Part shown: in pieces, positions 3,196 through 33,951 of the stretch | Position numbering within the stretch: the first letter of the stretch is position 1 | Layout: each line of letters starts with the position of its first letter | Source of the DNA: Candidatus Omnitrophota bacterium | GTDB taxonomy: Bacteria; Omnitrophota; Gorgyraeia; Gorgyraeales; Gorgyraeaceae | Length of the DNA: 41,178 nt | Direction of reading: 5' to 3' | Assembly (NCBI GenBank): GCA_018824725.1 | Contig: JAHJGB010000124.1 | Coordinates: forward strand, 1 to 41,178 | Made by a program: the position numbers and the translations under genes | The notes under the pieces: model-generated | Told to the model about the DNA's origin: nothing | Seen by the model: only the letters and a program-made list of their open reading frames with translations | Database searches by the model: none

Positions 3196-4319
3196 AAAAT
3201 AAATCCGGTGGCATAGAAAATCTGATACGTAAAATGCTCAAGAAGCACTCCTCCCCTCTTATGCTTATACAGGAGGAGGCGCTTGAGAAACAATTCAGGG
3301 CTTTCCTCAAAGCCCTGCCTGAAGTCATGCCTTACTACGCGATAAAGGCAAATCCGTATCCGGGAATCATTAAAAAGTTCATTGAATTAGGCGCTGGTTT
3401 TGACGTGGCGAGCGCCAACGAGATGAATACTGTTCTGGAACTCGGCGCAAATCCTGACAAAATAATCTTCGCTAACACTATAAAGTCCCATGAAGATATG
3501 AGATCCGCTTGCAAGAAAAAAGTAAAGCTCATGACCTTTGACAATGAGCCGGAATTATACAAAATAGCGAAAGCCTGCCCTGGCGCAAAAGTCATTATAA
3601 GGATCAAAGTGGCAAATATCGGCAGTATCGTAGAGCTCTCTCTGAAATTCGGGGCGGATCCGGAGCAATCGATATCCCTCCTCAAAAAAGCAAGGTCGCT
3701 GGGACTAAAACCCGTGGGCGTGAGCTTCCATGTGGGATCGCAATGCACCAATGCTGAAAATTATTTACAGGCCCTAGAGGTGTCTAGTGTGATATTCAAC
3801 GAAGCAAAACAATCAGGGATATTCTTAAATATACTGGATATAGGCGGCGGATTCCCTATAAAACATTTTGACGCTGACAGCCACCTTACATTTGAGCGCA
3901 TGGCAAACCCGATAAGGAAAAAATTACAGAGGCTTTTTGATAAAAACGTAAAGTTCATCGCTGAGCCCGGCAGATTTTTTGCAGGCCCTTCAGGAATATT
4001 GATAACGCAGGTGATAGGCAGGGCTTTCAGGAATAATAAAAACTATTATTATTTAAATGACGGCCTGTACGGCGATTTTTCAGGTATAGTGTTTGACCAC
4101 TGCAAATATGAATTCAAGACTTTAAACCGCGGGCAAAGGTTCCTGAGCACCCTGGCAGGACCTACGTGCGATTCATTTGATACGATTTCCTTAAGCGAAG
4201 ATCTTCCTGAGCTGGATGTGGGTAATGTGGTCTATGTGAAAAATATAGGCGCCTATTCATGCGCAAGCGCTGTGCCGAACTTCAACGGTTTTAAACCCGC
4301 AAAGATCGTGATGTGCTAG
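3192..4319 (+). CDS. Fold-type III PLP-dependent ornithine/lysine decarboxylase
   Basis: YAIKAN (PLP Lys), FDVAS, KFG, HVGSQ, DIGGGF, EPGR, GPTCD and GAY motifs; ATGA overlap with hss2. Confidence 0.88.
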   Translation: MKNKSGGIENLIRKMLKKHSSPLMLIQEEALEKQFRAFLKALPEVMPYYAIKANPYPGIIKKFIELGAGFDVASANEMNTVLELGANPDKIIFANTIKSHEDMRSACKKKVKLMTFDNEPELYKIAKACPGAKVIIRIKVANIGSIVELSLKFGADPEQSISLLKKARSLGLKPVGVSFHVGSQCTNAENYLQALEVSSVIFNEAKQSGIFLNILDIGGGFPIKHFDADSHLTFERMANPIRKKLQRLFDKNVKFIAEPGRFFAGPSGILITQVIGRAFRNNKNYYYLNDGLYGDFSGIVFDHCKYEFKTLNRGQRFLSTLAGPTCDSFDTISLSEDLPELDVGNVVYVKNIGAYSCASAVPNFNGFKPAKIVMC

Positions 4320-6063
4320 CTTCAAAAAATAAAATACTTCCTGCGTCGTAAAGAGGCCCATCGTATAATTCTACTATTTTCTTTCCCCTCTTCTTTATAA
4401 AATCTCTTATCGCGCAGCCGTCAGGATGATTTTTTAACGAGCCTATAAAAAATACCCTGTCTTTATGAACTCCTGATGCGCCGCCTATAAAACCAGTGCC
4501 GTAACCAGGTAGTTTTATATTTCCCGGCTTTACAAGCAAGGCATTTTTGCCCCAGATATCCTTTATGGATTTATCAGATGTAATAATACTCTTATCGTCC
4601 ACAGGCGCAATAGAACATTTCGCATATCCCTGTTTTACTTTTATAAATTTTACGTTTAGATTTTCTATATGCTTTTCGATTTTACCGTCATAGCGGATTA
4701 TGTATTTTCCGACACTGCACGCGTCGTAAATAATGTCTCCCGGATAGGCGGAAGATTTAATGACTTCGCCTTTAATACACTCATAGCCGTTATCCCTTAA
4801 AAGCCCGGCTATTTTTTCTAAATACGGTTCGTATATAACTTTTTTAGCATAAGAAAATAACATCATATCTGAGTGGCCTTTGACAGGCCCGGCCAGTTTT
4901 GGATGTAAAGGCACCTCTCTGACATAATAACCCATCTGCTTTAGTCTAAGTTTTGCTTCGGCCGGGATTCTAGGGTCAATAATGGCTATAACTTTTCTTA
5001 AATCTTTTATTTTAAAAATTTTAGACTCCCGTAATGAAATTTTAGCGCTATAAATTTTTTCCAAATATCTCTTCTCTTCTCCTTTATGCCCAGAGATGAA
5101 GCTGAAAAACTTTTTCGGGCCGTGGATTTCTATTAACCTGCGGTTTGGGATTTTTTTGGGGCCTAAAACACTTATTATTCTATTGCGCATTTGTCTGGCA
5201 CGCGCCATTTCCCCAAAGCTCACGTGATACGGCCCTGCCAGAATCGCAGCTTTTGAATTTAAATCTTCTGACGGGTGAAGGCCTATGCGGATTACTTTTA
5301 CGCCGGCTTTTTCAAAGATATCGCAAACTATAGCTGACCATTCTATTGCATCTTCGATCGAAAGCGGCTTGTATTTGCCATGTTTAAATAAATCCCCGAG
5401 CCCTGTGCCTTTTAAAACAATCGCAGGATATATGCGGCTTGTTTTTGGTTTTAACTTTACCAGCTCCAAAGCTGTCTTTATTGATTTCAGAAGCGTATCT
5501 CCGGGCAAGCCCAGCATCACCTGGATGCCTAAATCAAGGCCTGATTTTTTTATGATGCGGCTTGCGTTTTTAATCGTACTGAAATTCATGGCCCTATTAC
5601 ATTTCTTCAAAACCTCTTTATCAAGCGACTGTACGCCAAGCTCCACCAGGCATCCGCCCATTTTCTTAAACAGCTTCATTGATTTTTCAGTAACAGCCTC
5701 AGGATGCGTGGACATGCGGATCCCGGCTATTTTTTTATACATTCGCCCCGATTGCAATCGGGGCTCAGTATTCCGCCTAAGGAACCCCGGGCTTAAGCCC
5801 GGGTGGGCTCCATTTTCCACATAAGGGAAAACTGTTTCGAGGTACTTTTGCTGCAGCGCTTCAGGCAAAAGCGTAAACGTGCCGCCGAAAAAGGCAAGCT
5901 CCACCCTTTCGCGTCTTGGGATTGTTTTTAAATTTCTATCTATGACGGCTTTAATGTCTTTTTCTGAAGGGATGTTTACTGCGCCTGATATTTTATGCTG
6001 GTCGCAGTAAATGCACCTGTACGGACAGCCTGCGTGCGGGATAAATATGGGTATGATTTTCAC
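4291..6063 (-). CDS. Elp3-like radical SAM protein fused to a C-terminal DUF6873-like (GME/amidinotransferase-fold) domain; contains an in-frame palindromic insert
   Basis: IPIFIPHAGCPYRCIYC, FFGGTFT, ELGVQS and AGPYH; C-terminal ~235 aa with H-S-D, KQGYAKCS, ITSD, GFIGGASG and LYDAGSI, recognised from memory of clostridial DUF6873 proteins. Confidence 0.72.
   Translation of the reverse strand: MKIIPIFIPHAGCPYRCIYCDQHKISGAVNIPSEKDIKAVIDRNLKTIPRRERVELAFFGGTFTLLPEALQQKYLETVFPYVENGAHPGLSPGFLRRNTEPRLQSGRMYKKIAGIRMSTHPEAVTEKSMKLFKKMGGCLVELGVQSLDKEVLKKCNRAMNFSTIKNASRIIKKSGLDLGIQVMLGLPGDTLLKSIKTALELVKLKPKTSRIYPAIVLKGTGLGDLFKHGKYKPLSIEDAIEWSAIVCDIFEKAGVKVIRIGLHPSEDLNSKAAILAGPYHVSFGEMARARQMRNRIISVLGPKKIPNRRLIEIHGPKKFFSFISGHKGEEKRYLEKIYSAKISLRESKIFKIKDLRKVIAIIDPRIPAEAKLRLKQMGYYVREVPLHPKLAGPVKGHSDMMLFSYAKKVIYEPYLEKIAGLLRDNGYECIKGEVIKSSAYPGDIIYDACSVGKYIIRYDGKIEKHIENLNVKFIKVKQGYAKCSIAPVDDKSIITSDKSIKDIWGKNALLVKPGNIKLPGYGTGFIGGASGVHKDRVFFIGSLKNHPDGCAIRDFIKKRGKKIVELYDGPLYDAGSILFFEASTSRSLRV
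5737..5814 (-). mobile_element. Family A composite palindromic element (78 bp) inserted in frame in the radical SAM gene
   Basis: Perfect palindromes gccccgattgcaatcggggc (5745-5764) and cccgggcttaagcccggg (5786-5803); shares both ends with 7609-7713; encodes NGAHPGLSPGFLRRNTEPRLQSGRMY. Confidence 0.85.
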
Positions 6064-6066
6064 TTA

Positions 6067-6318
6067 TTACTTGTGGAATAGGACTGTAAAAACCATTACA
6101 AGCGTGAAGAAGAAAAAGTTTACATAGGTAAAAGTCCTATATACTATGTCAGGGCTTTGTATGCCCGTAGGAAACATTGCCAGGAAACAAACCCACACGC
6201 CTATTGCCCAGTATAGGCTCAGGTCCTTGGACGAGCGGCGCTTTATAATCCTAACTATAAGCGGGATGTTCCAGAGCGGGAGTATTATGCTGGCGATTAA
6301 AGCTATCTTAGTTAACAT
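6067..6318 (-). CDS. SemiSWEET/PQ-loop-like small membrane transporter
   Basis: 83 aa, three hydrophobic helices, P-x-I-x-R-I-I-K-x-x-S-S-K-D-L-S pattern (PQ replaced by PL). Confidence 0.65.
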   Translation of the reverse strand: MLTKIALIASIILPLWNIPLIVRIIKRRSSKDLSLYWAIGVWVCFLAMFPTGIQSPDIVYRTFTYVNFFFFTLVMVFTVLFHK

Positions 6319-6324
6319 ATATTA

Positions 6325-6361
6325 AGGGGACACATCTCCGATTGGCTCTAGAACCGTCCCT
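6325..6361. repeat. Degenerate GGGACGGTT...GTCCCC palindromic repeat related to 21263-21293
   Basis: Minus strand AGGGACGGTTCT...GTGTCCCCT, just after the fba stop. Confidence 0.45.
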
Positions 6362-6365
6362 ATCT

Positions 6366-7337
6366 TTATGCCTTGCCTGCGGAGCCCAGGACTTGCTCGT
6401 TTTTATGCTTATACATCTTTATAAGCTCGTCTCTTGCAGGGCCCAGGTATTTACGCGGGTCGAATTCTTTCGGGCTAGTCGCAAAAACTTCTCGTATCTT
6501 GGCTGTCATTGCGAGGCGGCCGTCTGAATCAATATTTATTTTACAGACAGCTGAAGCGGTGGCTTTTCTCAGCTGTTCTTCAGGAACGCCCGCTGTATTT
6601 TCAAGCTTTCCCCCGTATTTATTGATAAGGTCCACGTATTCTTTTGTGACAGAGCTTGCCCCGTGTAAAACTATGGGAAAACCCGGTATTCTTTTTTCAA
6701 CTTCTTCCAATATATCAAATCTCAGGGGCGGAACGCTTTCTCCGGGTTTTAATTTAAATTTATACGCGCCGTGGGAAGTGCCTATGGAGATCGCGAGGCT
6801 GTCAACGCCTGTCTTTTTTACAAAATCTTCCACTTCTTCAGGATGGGTGTAATGGCTAGCTTCGTGGCTTACCTCATCCTCTATCCCTGCCAGGACTCCG
6901 AGCTCGCCTTCTACTGTAACGTCGTATTTATGTGCATATTCGACTACTTTTTTAGTAAGGGCTGCATTGTCTTCGTATTTATGCGCTGAGCCGTCTATCA
7001 TGACAGAAGAAAATCCTGACTCTATGCAGGAAACGCAGAGTTCATAAGTATCGCCGTGGTCCAGGTGAAACGCCACAGGGATATTGGAACTTGCTGCTTT
7101 TATTATTTCCATTGAGCCCATTGCCATGTGCCTCAATAAAATCTGGTTTGCGTATTTTCTGGCGCCTGAAGAAACCTGTAAAATTACAGGAGACTTTGTT
7201 TCTATACATGCGGTGATTATTGCCTGGAGCTGTTCCATGTTATTAAAATTATAGGCTGGGATAGCGTATTTGCCCGCCATTGCCTTTTTAAACATATCTT
7301 TTGTATTAACCAGTCCTAATTCTTTGTAAGAATGCAT
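6366..7337 (-). CDS. fba: Class II fructose-1,6-bisphosphate aldolase
   Basis: HLDHG, SVMIDGS, VEGELG, GTSHGAYK, VLHGASS and KINIDSD; SD AGGAGG. Confidence 0.95.
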   Translation of the reverse strand: MHSYKELGLVNTKDMFKKAMAGKYAIPAYNFNNMEQLQAIITACIETKSPVILQVSSGARKYANQILLRHMAMGSMEIIKAASSNIPVAFHLDHGDTYELCVSCIESGFSSVMIDGSAHKYEDNAALTKKVVEYAHKYDVTVEGELGVLAGIEDEVSHEASHYTHPEEVEDFVKKTGVDSLAISIGTSHGAYKFKLKPGESVPPLRFDILEEVEKRIPGFPIVLHGASSVTKEYVDLINKYGGKLENTAGVPEEQLRKATASAVCKINIDSDGRLAMTAKIREVFATSPKEFDPRKYLGPARDELIKMYKHKNEQVLGSAGKA

Positions 7338-7365
7338 GAAATCCTCCTTTTTTTATGTGATATTT

Positions 7366-7394
7366 ATTATACCATTATATTAAACGTTGGTCAA
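7366..7394 (-). promoter_or_regulatory. sigma70 promoter of fba, TTGACC-17-TATAAT, overlapping the dusB 3' end
   Basis: ggtcaa 7389-7394, attata 7366-7371, extended -10 TG. Confidence 0.7.
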
Positions 7395-8453
7395 TTTTCT
7401 AAAGGACTGGATAATCTCCAGCATGCCTTCTTTTGTCTTTGTGCGGAAAGCCTTTTCCCTGAAAGACCTGACGCTGGGGATGCCTTTTGTGTACCATGCG
7501 AAAAATTTATGAAATCTCCTGATGCCATGAAGGGCGTCATAGAAATCAATATAGGAATTCATGTGCTCTATCATAACATCAGCTATTTCATCTATACTAG
7601 GTTTTTTGATACATTCGCGGCCACCTATCCACGGCCTTAAGGCCGTGGATAGGTAATGACCGCTCAGTATTCCGTCCAAGGGATCCCGGGTTTTAGCCCG
7701 TGTGGACTCCATTATCTTTTTATTTTTTAAGAATGTCTTTATCTGCTCGAAGATCCAGGGGTTCCCCAGCGCCCCCCTGGCCACAAGTAAGCCGTCGCAT
7801 CCTGTTTCATCCAGCATTTTTTTACCAAGCTCGGGACTAAGCACATCCCCGCTTCCTATAACAGGGATGTCCAGGGCCTTTTTTACATCTTTTATGGCGT
7901 CATAATCCACTTCTCCGCTGTAGCCCTGCTCCCTGTTTCTTCCGTGGATAAATAAAGCACTTATGCCTGCGTCCTGGCTCGCAAGAGCTGAATCTTTTGC
8001 GTTTATAGAATCCCTGTCCCAGCCTGTGCGGATTTTTACAGTGACAGGCTTGGCGGAATTTTTGACAATAATCTTTAATAACTTATTCAGCTTTTTAGGA
8101 TCTTTTAATAATGCAGCGCCTTCGCCGCGGCGCGCAACCTTTTTCACAGGGCAGGCTGCGTTAAAATCCAGGACATCGTACTCGTAAGAACCGAGTACGT
8201 CTAATGCCCTGGATATAAATTCTTCTTCGCAGCCTATGATCTGTATGCCGAGCGGCCTGTCCTTAGGGCTCGTGGAAAGCATTTTCTTCGTTTTACGCAT
8301 CTTATAGCTCAGGGACCTTACATTAATCATTTCTATAAAGCCGAGCTCGCAGCCAAACCTGCGGTTTAAGAGCCTGAAAGGCAGATCACTTACCCCTGCC
8401 ATAGGCGCCAGGATGAGATTTGACTTTAATTTTAAACTTCCGATTTTCAGCAT
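7380..8453 (-). CDS. dusB: tRNA-dihydrouridine synthase B with an in-frame palindromic insert
   Basis: LAPMAGVSD, N-x-x-CP (catalytic Cys), VTVKIRTGW, IHGR and ARGALGNPWIF. Confidence 0.92.
   Translation of the reverse strand: MLKIGSLKLKSNLILAPMAGVSDLPFRLLNRRFGCELGFIEMINVRSLSYKMRKTKKMLSTSPKDRPLGIQIIGCEEEFISRALDVLGSYEYDVLDFNAACPVKKVARRGEGAALLKDPKKLNKLLKIIVKNSAKPVTVKIRTGWDRDSINAKDSALASQDAGISALFIHGRNREQGYSGEVDYDAIKDVKKALDIPVIGSGDVLSPELGKKMLDETGCDGLLVARGALGNPWIFEQIKTFLKNKKIMESTRAKTRDPLDGILSGHYLSTALRPWIGGRECIKKPSIDEIADVMIEHMNSYIDFYDALHGIRRFHKFFAWYTKGIPSVRSFREKAFRTKTKEGMLEIIQSFRKLTNV
7609..7713 (-). mobile_element. Family A composite palindromic element (105 bp) inserted in frame in dusB
   Basis: Perfect 32-bp palindrome 7623-7654; 43/51 identity with 5763-5813 plus identical atacattcgc end; encodes MESTRAKTRDPLDGILSGHYLSTALRPWIGGREC. 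Confidence 0.85.
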
Positions 8454-8477: not shown

Positions 8478-8527
8478 TGATGGAAGCCCGACTCCCATCA
8501 TAAATGATGGGAGTCGGGCTTCCATCA
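8478..8527. repeat. Family B REP-like inverted doublet
   Basis: Perfect 24-bp arms tgatggaagcccgactcccatcat / atgatgggagtcgggcttccatca with 2-nt centre. Confidence 0.9.
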
Positions 8528-18057: not shown

Positions 18058-18124
18058 ACTATGGGAGCCCGACTCCCGTAGTTTTTCTTGCCAGCCCTCA
18101 CTATGGGAGTCGAACTCCCATAGT
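18058..18124. repeat. Family B inverted doublet with 17-nt spacer
   Basis: actatgggagcccgactcccgtagt (18058-18082) and actatgggagtcgaactcccatagt (18100-18124). Confidence 0.88.
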
Positions 18125-18335: not shown

Positions 18336-20755
18336 ACTAACTGAACGTCTATTATATTTAAACCCTTTCCTGCCAGGCTCAGGAATTCTTCCCTTTTTAC
18401 AGGTAACATTTTTACGGCCTTGCCATTTATAGAGATATTGTCTATCTTATACTCGCCGTAATCAAGATTACCAGGATTAAAATAATTGATCCGTATAGCT
18501 TTATCTGCAAAAGTCGTAGTTACCGAAACCTTTTTGGATTTTCCGAACTGCGATTTCACCAGCTTCGGATCTATCATAAGGCTCCCCATATCCCCTCTTA
18601 CCCCGAATACCTGGGTGAGCATCGTAAATAAAAGCCAACTGGCTGAGCCTGTCAGGTAATGATACATGCCGCGGCCCTCGGAATTAAAATACTCGGGGAT
18701 GCCGGGATAAATCTTACTGATGCCCGTATTTAGGCACATGCTGCATATGGATTTTATAACCTCGTATCCTTCCCTGGCAAATCCCCTTTTATAAAGCGCA
18801 TACGCAAACATCACGTTCATGTGGCTGAAGAATGCCCCGTTTTCTTTTTCGCCGTAACTAAACCCGAATGCCCTGCCAAGATTAGGCTGGATCTCTTTAA
18901 AATCAGTGTTCAGCCTGAAACCCTCCAGAGTCTTGTCCCATAAATATCGTTTTACGCTTCTGTATATTTCATGCACCTGCTCGTCTGTAGCTATCCCGCT
19001 CATTATCGGAAATACCTGTCCTGTGAGAGTCATGCGCACACCATTTATATGATCCCCCTCCACCCTCTGGCCCAGGTTATCATAATATCCGTTAAAGAAA
19101 CTGCAGCCTGAATTAATCTTTATCCATTCATCCCTTCTTATGTGTTCCGCCAGGCTATCGGCCTTTTGGCGCAGCTCGCTTATTGTTTCCTTTTTATAAT
19201 TTATTTTTTCAAGCAAGTTTGCCAGGTCAAAAAGGTTTCCCGCGTAAGCAGCGGTAAACGCAACGCTCTCCCCGTTTTCCCCGGCCATATCAAGCCCGTC
19301 GTTCCAATCAGCGCCTTCCAGAAGAAAATTCCCGTGTTTGCCTATTTTTGTAAAAGGCCTCTGGTGCTGTAATAGGATATGTTCTAGCACGGTATCTATC
19401 CTGTCGCTTTCAAAAAAACCGGCTTTTTCAAAAAGTATATCCTTATCGCCTGACTGATTTATATAAAGATTCAAGGTCACCAGCGGCCAAAAGCCATGAT
19501 CCATCCAAGTGCGGGAAATATTATTCCTGTCAGAGATAAACTCCCCCCGGGTTTTTCCTATTATAGTGGCGTTTGAACCATCGGGCCGCACTCCCCCGAA
19601 ATTATTTATAAGCATAGCGCGCGCTTCTTCGGGATGCATTAAAAGCAGCGTCAATAAATCCTGCCACAGATCTCTCCACCCGCGGCCGCCTCTACCATAA
19701 TCAAAATCAGGAAGGAATGAACAGCCGAATATCTTTCTGAATATAGGCTGGCCGCCTACCCACTTCATCCACCTGTCAAAATCCTTGTCATCCGTAGAAA
19801 AATAAACCCCCTCCGATTTTTCAACCCAGAATTTTTTATTAAAAGCCAGGGTCTTGTTTAATTTTTTAGCGGAATTAAACTTTTGGAATATCTTCTCCGG
19901 GCTAGATTCTGTTATACCCATGGCGGCGATGTATTTCATTGATTTGCCCGGAGTTATAGAGAGTGTTTTAAATCTTACGGCGCCCATTGCCTCTTTGCCC
20001 TGCCTTCCAATGCCTGATTTTTTCTCAGGGGCTTTATTTTTTAAAACAGCTTCCGGCTTTTCAAGGCTTCCGCCTTCACCTGTAAACTCCATCAGCGTAG
20101 GAAAAACCCCTTCAGGTAAATCGGCATTACCCTGGCTCCCAAACACAAAATAAGATAATTTATTTATTTTATGGCCCCTTTCATCAAAACTCATCGTAGG
20201 AGTTACTGTAACGCCATACTTAGTTAGCCTGATTCTATTTAAAAGGGAAGTCACATGCCTGTGATCGCGAAGATTATCACTAGACCTGGCGTATATAGGT
20301 ATAGCCAGGGTAGGGGTTATTTTTAATTTCTTTTTTGAAATATTAGTGACTTCCAAAGACATCAGCTCAACCGGTTCGCCATGGGCAGGGATAAAATTTA
20401 ACGCCTCTACTTTTATCCCGAGTTTTCTATTTATCTTTATAACCTTATGCCATAAAAATCCGGCCTCCACCAATGTCTCGTCGCTCTCTCCAAAAGCAAC
20501 AGACCATGCGCAGCCAGGATCAACATACAGCCAAAAATTGCGATTATACAGGGTGTTAGCCAAATCTTCCGCGGAAACCGGGACTGTCAGGAATGAATGC
20601 TGGCCTGTTTTTATATCTCCGTGCAGATTCGGGGTGATGGAGCTCATTATGCCGGATTCGTTTGCAAGAGGGAAATAAAGCCTTGAGATTTTATCCGGGT
20701 TCTCGGCTACAAAAGTGGCGTCATCGTCTATGAATCTCCAGAACGTGTTATGCAT
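18332..20755 (-). CDS. GH94 glycoside phosphorylase, laminaribiose-phosphorylase-like
   Basis: YGRGGRGWRDLWQD, ADWNDGLD, GESVAF, KENGAFFSH and YLTGSASW; N-terminus resembles Paenibacillus LBP from memory; start moved to 20755 (SD GGGAG). Confidence 0.8.
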   Translation of the reverse strand: MHNTFWRFIDDDATFVAENPDKISRLYFPLANESGIMSSITPNLHGDIKTGQHSFLTVPVSAEDLANTLYNRNFWLYVDPGCAWSVAFGESDETLVEAGFLWHKVIKINRKLGIKVEALNFIPAHGEPVELMSLEVTNISKKKLKITPTLAIPIYARSSDNLRDHRHVTSLLNRIRLTKYGVTVTPTMSFDERGHKINKLSYFVFGSQGNADLPEGVFPTLMEFTGEGGSLEKPEAVLKNKAPEKKSGIGRQGKEAMGAVRFKTLSITPGKSMKYIAAMGITESSPEKIFQKFNSAKKLNKTLAFNKKFWVEKSEGVYFSTDDKDFDRWMKWVGGQPIFRKIFGCSFLPDFDYGRGGRGWRDLWQDLLTLLLMHPEEARAMLINNFGGVRPDGSNATIIGKTRGEFISDRNNISRTWMDHGFWPLVTLNLYINQSGDKDILFEKAGFFESDRIDTVLEHILLQHQRPFTKIGKHGNFLLEGADWNDGLDMAGENGESVAFTAAYAGNLFDLANLLEKINYKKETISELRQKADSLAEHIRRDEWIKINSGCSFFNGYYDNLGQRVEGDHINGVRMTLTGQVFPIMSGIATDEQVHEIYRSVKRYLWDKTLEGFRLNTDFKEIQPNLGRAFGFSYGEKENGAFFSHMNVMFAYALYKRGFAREGYEVIKSICSMCLNTGISKIYPGIPEYFNSEGRGMYHYLTGSASWLLFTMLTQVFGVRGDMGSLMIDPKLVKSQFGKSKKVSVTTTFADKAIRINYFNPGNLDYGEYKIDNISINGKAVKMLPVKREEFLSLAGKGLNIIDVQLV

Positions 20756-33904: not shown

Positions 33905-33951
33905 TCACTATGGGAGCCCGACTCCCATCGGGAGTCGGGCTCCCATAGTGA
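33905..33951. repeat. Family B inverted doublet
   Basis: Perfect 22-bp arms tcactatgggagcccgactccc-atc-gggagtcgggctcccatagtga, 2 nt after the phoU stop. Confidence 0.9.

Follow-up and report, generated by a model that had tools for sequence, protein, structure and literature searches.

The two insertions and their host genes

The window, a stretch of 41,178 nucleotides from a Candidatus Omnitrophota genome, contains a radical SAM gene and a dusB gene, each of which carries one copy of a small structured repeat in frame within its coding sequence. The features of the two loci are as follows.

4291..6063, minus strand: host gene 1, radical SAM protein; intact ORF of 590 aa with Radical_SAM, Radical_SAM_C and DUF6873
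5737..5813, minus strand: short-type copy in the radical SAM gene, ATGGAG...GAATGTAT, 77 nt, read in phase 1
5763..5813, minus strand: left module of this copy, consisting of the outer stem, hairpin 1 and a conserved core ending GGAATACTGAGC
5747..5762, minus strand: hairpin 2 of this copy, short type
5737..5746, minus strand: right-end 10-mer of this copy, GCGAATGTAT
7380..8453, minus strand: host gene 2, tRNA-dihydrouridine synthase DusB; intact ORF of 357 aa
7609..7712, minus strand: long-type copy in dusB, 104 nt, read in phase 0
7662..7712, minus strand: left module of the dusB copy (nhmmer match 7720-7662, E 6.7e-16)
7619..7661, minus strand: hairpin 2 of the dusB copy, long type, with a basal stem and a distal hairpin
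7609..7618, minus strand: right-end 10-mer of the dusB copy

The two copies have the common architecture that an earlier, sequence-only reading had described. Their left blocks align with 8 mismatches in 52 positions, the 13-mer core and the right-end 10-mer (10/10) are identical, and the hairpin between the core and the right end differs. In the radical SAM copy the core lies at 5763-5775 and the nhmmer match extends from 5823 to 5763 (E 1.4e-19); the dusB copy scores 124 bits with the covariance model. The reading frames differ, as that reading had also noted: dusB is read ATG GAG, the radical SAM gene xAT GGA, and the third frame is closed. Two further matches to the core motif, at 20642 (2 mismatches) and 32607 (1 mismatch), are regarded as chance, the other parts of the element being absent there.

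The net insert is 75 nt, or 25 amino acids (residues 85-109), in the radical SAM gene and 102 nt, or 34 amino acids (residues 248-281), in dusB. The inserts had previously been taken as 78 and 105 nt; the empty sites described below shorten both, and the lengths remain multiples of three. Each insert is covered by the domain match of its host (Radical_SAM, residues 8-191; Dus, residues 19-354). Both hosts are intact ORFs.

Copies of the element in the genome

The repeat family has 56 copies in the 1.66-Mb genome (nhmmer), 52 of them with both ends, and the elements range in size from 63 to 153 nt. The 12-mer core occurs exactly 39 times genome-wide against 0.2 expected, which is far above the chance level, and 59 times if up to one mismatch is allowed. 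The genome is a draft of 181 contigs, 93% complete.

Gene context was assigned with a crude ORF caller, by which 22 of the 52 complete copies lie in a coding context: 15 are intragenic in the sense orientation, 5 are at the 5' ends of genes and 2 are credible antisense copies. The remaining 30 are intergenic or at ORF edges. All 22 coding copies are stop-free in the frame of the host and have a length divisible by three, compared with a divisible length in 19 of the 30 others (Fisher p 0.0012). In intergenic copies the frames are for the most part closed, with 9/25 open in phase 0 and 8/25 in phase 1. An antisense ORF over a 73-nt insert (C41) was discarded as spurious; its length is no multiple of three, and by the crude gene calls this copy is intergenic.

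The hosts include ValRS, UvrA (two copies), UvrC, MurB, TilS and HolB. Pfam families were found in all 20 host ORFs scanned, and a single Pfam domain match spans the insert in DusB, the radical SAM protein, TilS, a TrxB-like protein and ValRS.

The element has the same orientation as the local genes in 39 of the 52 copies. This bias arises in part because the target itself is strand-biased and because antisense frames carry stop codons. GC skew tracks the coding strand in this genome, so that replication and transcription cannot be separated as sources of the bias. Many of the intergenic copies lie directly upstream of a ribosome-binding site.

Empty sites and the target sequence

Clean empty sites are present at all six insertion sites that were compared with same-genus orthologues. 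The dusB site is empty in 7/7 same-genus loci aligning across the insertion point, and the insert is also absent from the 12 homologues in the DusB protein alignment. The radical SAM site is empty in 10/10 such loci; in 12/12 same-genus genomes the protein match stops at residues 83/84 and restarts at residue 110. Among same-genus orthologues, the tilS site is empty in 5/5, the murB site in 4/4, the site of the uvrA antisense copy in 4/4 and that of the uvrA sense copy in 3/4. Without the insertions the host sequences read YVE-N-KKIAG (radical SAM) and FLKNKKI-IKKP (DusB). At each site the earlier excision had also taken out one residue that belongs to the host. Together with the 56 copies, the 22 copies read through in frame, the Pfam matches that run across the inserts and the DusB model described below, the six empty sites bear out the earlier proposal of a non-autonomous repeat family through which working enzymes gain loops.

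Every empty site has the form (G)AAA-AT-AAA, and the filled site has AT at each end. The flanks of the element are host sequence that is present in the empty sites. The counts over 52 copies are G37 A42 A42 A47 -AT- A46 A47 A42; the T of the AT is invariant (52/52), and the preceding base is A in 47/52. Free GAAAATAAA sites within genes occupy two phases only, 51 and 45 of them respectively. The empty site has a single AT, the insert one at each end; the second AT represents a 2-bp duplication or comes with the element. The sequence-only reading had seen no clear target duplication; the target is in fact sharply defined.

Fold and subfamilies

The consensus fold has 30 base pairs, 10 of which show compensatory double changes. 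Across the 19 long-type copies, each pair of the distal stem shows between 2 and 8 double changes. The termini are unpaired and all pairing is internal, that is, the consensus has no terminal inverted repeats. Hairpin 2 had been described as swapped between the two window copies. It does differ, and this is better understood as a difference between subfamilies, which are distinguished by co-varying stems and by the presence or absence of the distal hairpin. Wobble pairs are commoner on the sense strand (35 vs 19, p 0.04).

A search of Rfam 15 with positions 5600-7850, at E values up to 10, returned four weak matches, none of them on either element, and known ribozymes and small RNAs were set aside as the identity of the repeat. 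The sequence of the left module is strongly conserved across families of the class, which could also mean that it has a function for the host.

Distribution in other genomes

In a covariance-model search of 150 other genomes from the class, 36 gave a match, and the family is present in at least 33 of the 122 genera sampled. Copy number among related genomes ranges from 0 to at least 24. In-frame copies in these relatives are found also in MoaA-like, Mfd and other genes, and in one genome (G006) the same radical SAM gene carries a copy at a different site.

A search through 185,579 species genomes for one 22-mer of the element, without mismatches, gave 18 stretches, 17 labelled Omnitrophota or Omnitrophica and one Planctomycetia. 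The 22-mer has zero exact matches in Rickettsia within the same set, this being an exact-match search and not a homology test, and it is absent from viral contigs. This distribution speaks against membership in the families RPE-1 to RPE-10. A literature search of openly accessible main texts turned up no report of elements of this kind from Omnitrophota.

The insert in mRNA and protein

The AlphaFold model of DusB, calculated from an alignment of 110 sequences, has a mean pLDDT of 86.1, values under 50 being confined to residues 246-281; a shallow alignment of 13 sequences had given a pLDDT of 60. The insert is predicted to be the only disordered segment in an otherwise confident model. An RNA-library contig joins the uvrA flank to a copy of the element (loose ends at 5780 and 5817). 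The library may contain DNA, and the contig is a weak hint that the element is transcribed with uvrA. The insert is presumably kept in the protein.

DNA contigs from another sample run into the dusB copy from both flanks with zero differences. In the contigs of four runs no junction skips either window element and no empty-site allele is seen; rare variants are lost from contigs, which also end at repeats, and the missing allele is therefore no evidence of fixation.

Comparison with known repeats

The two stretches are members of a real RPE-like family in a new phylum. As summarised in the MITE review PMC10969869, Rickettsia palindromic elements (RPEs; Ogata et al. 2000, 2002) are short, structured, non-coding repeats of roughly 100-150 bp that lack a transposase and whose movement is unexplained. 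Close to half of their copies are described there as lying in frame within unrelated housekeeping genes and kept open, adding a stretch of peptide that the protein fold seems to accommodate. The Omnitrophota element resembles them in being short, structured, non-coding, without a transposase and in frame in unrelated genes. It differs probably in its sequence, and in its occurrence in an unrelated phylum and in its shorter length (63-153 nt), in its sharp GAAA-AT-AAA target with AT on both sides, in the use of two sense frames and some antisense frames, and in its spread over at least 33 of 122 sampled genera of a class.

REP/REPIN sequences mobilised by RAYT (Y1) proteins are likewise short, G+C-rich, multi-copy hairpins, and this genome has palindrome-flanked Y1_Tnp genes. 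However, the repeats flanking these genes belong to other families, the consensus of the element has no GTAG or CGTC tag beside a hairpin, and the element is not solely extragenic, since 17 copies lie inside coding sequence and 5 at ORF 5' ends. Bacterial MITEs such as ERIC and Correia/NEMIS are also small, multi-copy, non-autonomous and occasionally intragenic in frame. They are characterised by terminal inverted repeats, defined duplications such as TA and only exceptional intragenic copies (PMC10969869), whereas the Omnitrophota element has about four in ten copies in genes and no terminal inverted repeats.

The similarity to IS200/IS605 elements and their transposase-less derivatives comprises the lack of inverted repeats, a hairpin near each end, precise empty sites and strand-specific insertion 3' of a fixed short sequence. 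IS200/IS605 elements are not known to show target conservation on both sides of the insertion point, whereas the target of the present element is conserved on the 3' side too. Its two hairpins are also unlike each other, and no TnpA or TnpB bearing its ends was found. The resemblance of hairpin 1 to the ends of such elements, pointed out earlier, stays a lead: Y1 genes exist here, and none is flanked by the element.

Search for a mobilising enzyme

Neither a cognate transposase nor an autonomous copy was found in the genome. It has five Y1_Tnp genes, with proteins of 162 aa and 164 aa encoded on contigs C17 and C139, and a motif scan of their flanks revealed other palindromes and not this element. 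At 30 Y1 loci of five element-rich genomes, examined with the covariance model, there is one full element, 55 nt downstream of the gene with nothing upstream, which is read as chance adjacency and not as a cognate pair. None of the five own and thirty foreign Y1 loci is flanked by the element on both sides. There is no match to TnpB (PF07282), and the IS110-type domains PF01548 and PF02371 are absent; as the genome is 93% complete, these absences are weak. One large serine recombinase gene is situated on contig C129, and it was rejected as the mobiliser as no link to the element was found. As the mobilising enzyme we would guess first at a Y1 HUH transposase that works in trans and on single-stranded DNA.

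Proposed explanation and alternatives

The two stretches are most probably (probability about 0.85) copies of a small, non-coding, non-autonomous selfish repeat of Omnitrophota that inserts site-specifically at an AT target and adds in-frame loops to proteins. The element consists of two hairpin domains, the left conserved in sequence and the right in shape only. It inserts at one exact point of the A-rich sequence (G)AAA-AT-AAA, leaving AT at either side, and the A-rich strand of the target becomes the sense strand of the element. Within genes the target fits two frames, encoding Lys-Ile-Lys or Glu-Asn-Lys; the third would hold TAA. The main subfamilies insert a multiple of three bases. Given a target restricted to two frames and lengths divisible by three, part of the insertions leave the gene open. 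Such frame-open copies would survive, being transcribed and translated with the host gene, and the result would be a hydrophilic loop of 21-42 residues in places that tolerate it, for example linkers, surface loops and signal or leader peptides.

Roles as host signals have been proposed for REP sequences, and the present repeat might similarly be retained by the host primarily as a structured signal in RNA or DNA, for instance one that stabilises mRNA, regulates as a hairpin or binds a protein, with the intragenic copies as by-products. The fold conserved through compensatory changes, the left module shared by many families of the class, the position of many intergenic copies just 5' of a ribosome-binding site, the co-orientation of 39/52 copies with local genes and the sense-strand wobble preference would all agree with such a role. 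However, the target's own strand bias and antisense stop codons account for part of the co-orientation, no Rfam family matches, and the copies occur in either orientation, in genes and at positions that are unrelated to one another. None of the six tested insertions is common to sister species, and related genomes differ in copy number, from 0 to at least 24. A host signal is accordingly an improbable explanation. It is more improbable still, to the point of being hardly credible, that the element behaves like an intervening sequence, cut from the transcript or skipped by the ribosome to give proteins without the loop. The strong structure of the element and the predicted disorder of the DusB insert would suit removal, but frame and length would then not matter, and yet all 22 coding copies are three-fold in length and stop-free against 19/30 three-fold among the others. 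There is also no match to a known ribozyme or intron family, and the uvrA contig from the RNA library weakly hints at retention.

The other question is how the selfish repeat moves. In place of a Y1 enzyme, a DDE transposase making a 2-bp AT duplication, as for a classical MITE, or a serine or IS110-type recombinase with a 2-bp crossover core might be responsible. Either would account for AT at both ends of every copy and a single AT in every empty site, as well as for a target conserved on either side of the core, and a large serine recombinase gene is present. The unpaired ends, which lack terminal inverted repeats, count against this, as do, weakly, the missing IS110-type domains, and the C129 gene has no shown link to the element. 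This origin is possible but doubtful. It is likewise possible, though doubtful, that the element moves by a site- and strand-specific mechanism outside the described transposon classes, and that lengths in multiples of three and frames that are open in part evolved for persistence in essential genes throughout the class. The absence of inverted repeats, the A-rich target of 9 bp around a shared AT, the unlike end hairpins and the lack of a visible cognate enzyme in a 93% complete genome are pointers to such a mechanism. If the lengths and frames did evolve in this way, the element would be a steady source of new protein loops.

Colonisation of housekeeping genes in frame by a selfish repeat has hitherto been treated as a peculiarity of Rickettsia, and the repeat described here would be the same phenomenon, arisen independently in an uncultured groundwater phylum. 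It is a tractable system: the target is exact, sister species have clean empty sites, and the subfamilies are discrete. The copies in ValRS, UvrA, MurB, TilS, DusB and others are natural experiments on where these proteins tolerate a loop of 21-42 residues. For annotation, the inserts inflate protein lengths, and assemblies break at each copy.

Architecture of the two copies and the family in the genome

The element family is filed as one that works like the Rickettsia palindromic elements (RPE), the closest known case, to which it is likened by behaviour and not by sequence homology. Both copies in the window lie within long, intact genes:

4291..6063, minus strand: radical SAM host ORF, 590 aa, long and intact, with the domains Radical_SAM, Radical_SAM_C and DUF6873
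5737..5813, minus strand: copy of the element in the radical SAM gene
7380..8453, minus strand: DusB host ORF, 357 aa, long and intact
7609..7712, minus strand: copy of the element in dusB

On the coding strand the two copies have the same plan: ATGGAG, a hairpin with a four-base loop, a conserved stretch running to CGGAATACTGAGC, a second hairpin and GCGAATGTAT. The left block is mismatched at 8 of 52 positions, there is no mismatch in the 13-mer core and the terminal 10-mer, and the second hairpins of the two copies are unlike each other. The shared architecture proposed in the sequence-only reading is thus borne out, as is its claim that the element is read in different frames in the two hosts, as ATG GAG in dusB and as xAT GGA in the radical SAM gene.

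The genome of the window (G000) is a 93% complete draft of 181 contigs and 1,662,076 bases, with 41% G+C. The 12-mer GGAATACTGAGC has 39 exact occurrences in it, or 59 when one mismatch is allowed, the expected number being 0.2. Searching G000 by nhmmer with a profile of the left module (outer stem, hairpin 1 and core) gave 64 matches at E <=1, of which 56 were retained at E <=0.02; the 8 discarded matches (E >=0.17) were short and mostly on the opposite strand of known copies. The supposed mobile palindromic element is therefore a multi-copy family. Of the 56 copies, 52 allowed both ends to be located, and the remaining 4 are truncated by a contig end or broken by another repeat. The ATG-to-GTAT lengths of the copies fall into classes of 75, 77, 80, 83 and 104 nt. 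A few are shorter, having an internal deletion, and a few are longer, having a further small palindrome nested within them. Such nesting is seen in copies on contigs C29 (524-627), C45 (23808-23905), C38 (5017-5171), C71 (7237-7364), C169 and C179, and its places are fixed, being the loop of hairpin 1, the bulge that follows this hairpin, or hairpin 2. There are thus several small repeat families that insert into one another.

Fold of the element

RNAalifold, applied to 19 long-type copies, predicted a fold of 30 pairs, comprising an outer stem around hairpin 1, a four-pair ATAC/GTAT stem, the basal stem of hairpin 2 and a distal hairpin. Pairing is maintained despite changes on both sides in 10 of the 30 pairs; in the distal hairpin, double changes that keep the pairing occur in 2 to 8 sequences per pair. 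Both termini of the element are unpaired, showing that there are no terminal inverted repeats. The left module is about 90% alike across subfamilies, while hairpin 2 differs, and the medium type resembles the long type minus the distal hairpin, with a co-varied basal stem. Hairpin 2 had been described as swapped; it does differ between subfamilies, in the sense of being conserved in shape and free in sequence. There are 35 wobble pairs on the sense strand versus 19 if the other strand is folded (p 0.04), a weak indication that it is the sense strand that folds.

Empty sites and target

All named homologues of DusB come from Candidatus Omnitrophota / Omnitrophica. The closest of them (up to 88% identical) mostly have 323 residues, versus 357 in the DusB of the window. 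Alignment with 12 homologues leaves a clean gap of 34 columns between FLKNKKI and IKKP in 11 of them, and a longer gap in the twelfth. Orthologues were also compared as DNA.

Insertion sites compared with same-genus genomes at the DNA level
dusB: 102 nt absent in 7/7 loci aligning across; 3 more loci aligned on one side only
radical SAM gene: 75 nt absent in 10/10 loci aligning across; 1 locus aligned on one side only
uvrA, sense copy: insert absent in G001, G006 and G011; unrelated ~90 nt in G004
uvrA, antisense copy: insert absent in 4/4 genomes
tilS: insert absent in 5/5 genomes
murB: insert absent in 4/4 genomes

As the sequence-only reading had supposed, orthologues lack the inserts, and empty sites were found at all six sites compared. 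The G004 uvrA gene (locus L123), with its unrelated sequence in the place of the sense insert, has an ORF of 977 aa versus 933-939 in three other relatives; the UvrA loop at this site seems to tolerate differing inserts.

In six of six cases the empty site reads ...AAA-AT-AAA... and the filled site ...AAA-AT-[GGAG...GAATGT]-AT-AAA.... Since there is one AT in the empty site and an AT on both sides of the insert in the filled one, the net insert is two bases shorter than the ATG-to-GTAT length. Either the AT is a 2-bp duplication of the target or it is part of one element end. The A-runs flanking the insert on both sides are host sequence and not part of the element. The bases around the insert (n=52) are G (37), A (42), A (42), A (47), AT, A (46), A (47) and A (42). 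G000 has 175 unoccupied GAAAATAAA sites, which by crude gene calls are 96 sense, 55 antisense and 24 between genes. The 96 sense sites are found in two phases only (51 and 45); a target in the third phase contains TAA, and the element is consequently read in exactly two sense frames.

Frame and orientation

The context of each copy was assigned by the ORFs reading through it, which were called by a crude method, supplemented by Pfam matches for 20 hosts.

Context of the element copies and divisibility of their net length by three
Inside long ORFs, sense: 15 copies, 15/15 divisible
5' end of long ORFs, sense: 5 copies, 5/5 divisible
Inside long ORFs, antisense: 3 copies, 2/3 divisible
Antisense at ORF 5' ends: 4 copies, 4/4 divisible
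Between genes or other: 25 copies, 15/25 divisible

An antisense copy on contig C41 (73-nt insert, between genes by crude gene calls) was set aside as a coding candidate and counted as intergenic. The length is divisible by three in 22/22 coding copies versus 19/30 others (Fisher p 0.0012). Intergenic copies are mostly closed, phase 0 being open in 9/25, phase 1 in 8/25 and phase 2 in 3/25. That each window copy is open only in the frame of its host is best understood as the mark left by a filter, through which only open insertions of three-divisible length survived within genes.

Of the 52 copies, 39 are co-oriented with the surrounding genes (p 0.0004), in part because the target is commoner on the sense strand and in part because almost every antisense frame of the long-type copies is closed. 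The coding copies, 20 sense to 2 antisense, are still biased above target availability (p 0.013). GC skew in G000 tracks the coding strand.

Several of the 5'-end copies lie just ahead of a hydrophobic signal-like segment, and one ahead of a pilin N-methylation motif. Signal-like segments and the N-terminal parts of pilins are often cleaved off. At four gene 5' ends, C121:10620-10723 (L006), C93:4919-5022 (L012), C45:3562-3665 (L005) and C176:5662-5765 (L017), the element is directly followed by such a segment or motif. The element's own ATG, with GGAAA before it, may be the start codon of the SurA-like gene. By eye, this gene has no alternative start codon between the element and the signal segment.

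Host proteins

The 20 host ORFs searched against Pfam all gave family matches: DusB, two radical SAM proteins, an Rce1-like protease, a PyrK-like Fe-S protein, YfhO, a weak GH5 match, a SurA-like chaperone, TilS, HolB, a Mur ligase, NadE, a polysaccharide deacetylase, ValRS, a TrxB-like reductase, MurB, a pseudopilin, UvrC, UvrA (one sense and one antisense copy) and a family-2 glycosyltransferase (antisense copy). The hosts are real genes, and a single domain match spans the insert in five of their proteins: DusB, the window radical SAM protein, TilS, the TrxB-like protein and ValRS. With both window proteins as queries, no second close copy of either was found in G000; apart from distant paralogues of the radical SAM protein, the other matches were peptides that element copies encode.

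An AlphaFold model of DusB, based on a 110-sequence alignment, has a mean pLDDT of 86.1. Its sole segment under pLDDT 50 comprises residues 246-281, the insert being 248-281, and sits between helices 234-251 and 287-305. A first model, built on 13 sequences, was of insufficient quality and was discarded. The solved Thermotoga homologue 1vhn aligns to DusB residues 10-253 and 284-353, with the break at 1vhn residues 237-241, which we take to be where the TIM barrel of Dus enzymes is connected to their helical domain. The insert is probably retained in the protein.

Contigs of four sequencing runs were mapped to window positions 5400-8100. Difference-free contigs of run X3 reach into the dusB copy from either side and overlap within the element, showing that the insertion is present in the DNA of that run. 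Over both elements there is a sharp rise in depth with contig breaks, the usual behaviour of repeats. The RNA library X7 has loose ends at 5780 and 5817 that correspond to the uvrA flank and to a private variant of the uvrA copy, so that the element is joined to uvrA coding sequence in this library; the join is only a hint of transcription, because the library may carry over DNA.

Distribution among relatives

BLAST with the dusB copy as query found the family in 7 of 12 other same-genus genomes and, beyond the genus, in a second genus of the same taxonomic family and in a single genome from a different one. With a covariance model based on 19 copies, the element was detected in 36 of the 150 other genomes sampled from the class, related genomes being non-independent samples; with the window's genome included, 33 of 122 genera are represented. 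Counts per genome range up to at least 24, with 24 candidates scored in each.

In-frame copies in relatives lie in a MoaA-like gene, two U5-methyltransferase genes, mfd and a lipid A acyltransferase fusion. A further in-frame copy, in antisense and at a different site, lies within the DUF6873 domain of the window radical SAM gene's orthologue in G006. The insertions are thus independent and lineage-specific. Upstream of this G006 orthologue (C38, locus L034, local ~560-635) are two adjoining copies, one of which contains two masked bases (NN).

An exact 22-mer of the element was found in 18 stretches among species genomes, 17 labelled Omnitrophota/Omnitrophica and 1 Planctomycetia, and in none of the viral contigs. 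The sole match outside Omnitrophota-labelled records (L171, uncultured Planctomycetia bacterium) may be a matter of binning or labelling, or a real occurrence outside the phylum.

Known systems and the mode of movement

For organisms other than Rickettsia, a review (PMC10969869) goes no further than suggesting that similar elements may exist. A search of article texts, mostly open-access, found none on such elements in Omnitrophota. The element does not qualify as a classical MITE, or as one half of a REP/RAYT pair.

Five Y1_Tnp matches are present in G000, of which three are full small genes of 140, 162 and 164 residues. The element was not found at the flanks of these Y1 genes, which carry other palindromic repeats; the latter are abundant, one motif (GGGAGCCCGACTCCC) having 217 matches at <=1 mismatch and another (GGGACGGTTCTAGA) 16. 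Among 30 Y1 loci in five element-rich genomes, searched by covariance model with filters off, 29 are without a full copy. The single exception has the element 55 nt downstream of a 281-aa Y1 gene and nothing upstream. The hope of a TnpA/RAYT gene flanked by the same hairpins thus came to nothing in G000, and in the five element-rich genomes to a one-sided case. TnpB and IS110 domains were not found in G000 (93% complete), which has one large serine recombinase gene.

The end hairpins, the lack of inverted repeats, the strand-specific insertion right after AAAAT and the precise empty sites point to a single-strand HUH (Y1) mechanism acting in trans, which we consider possible but on balance unlikely. 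A recombinase with a 2-bp crossover fits just as well for two features, the AT at both ends and the target conserved on both sides.

Two other palindromic repeats occur in the window:

8478-8527, 33910-33948 and near 18063: GGGAGCCCGACTCCC family
6324-6365: GGGACGGTTCTAGA repeat, between a small membrane-protein ORF and an aldolase gene

The GGGAGCCCGACTCCC family consists of perfect palindromes of ~40-50 nt around the motif and is far more abundant than the element. One such palindrome is just upstream of the dusB start. Others adjoin Y1 transposase-like genes on C7 and C162, an arrangement resembling that of classic REP-RAYT pairs. The GGGACGGTTCTAGA repeat is found on both sides of the 162-aa Y1 transposase-like gene of C17.
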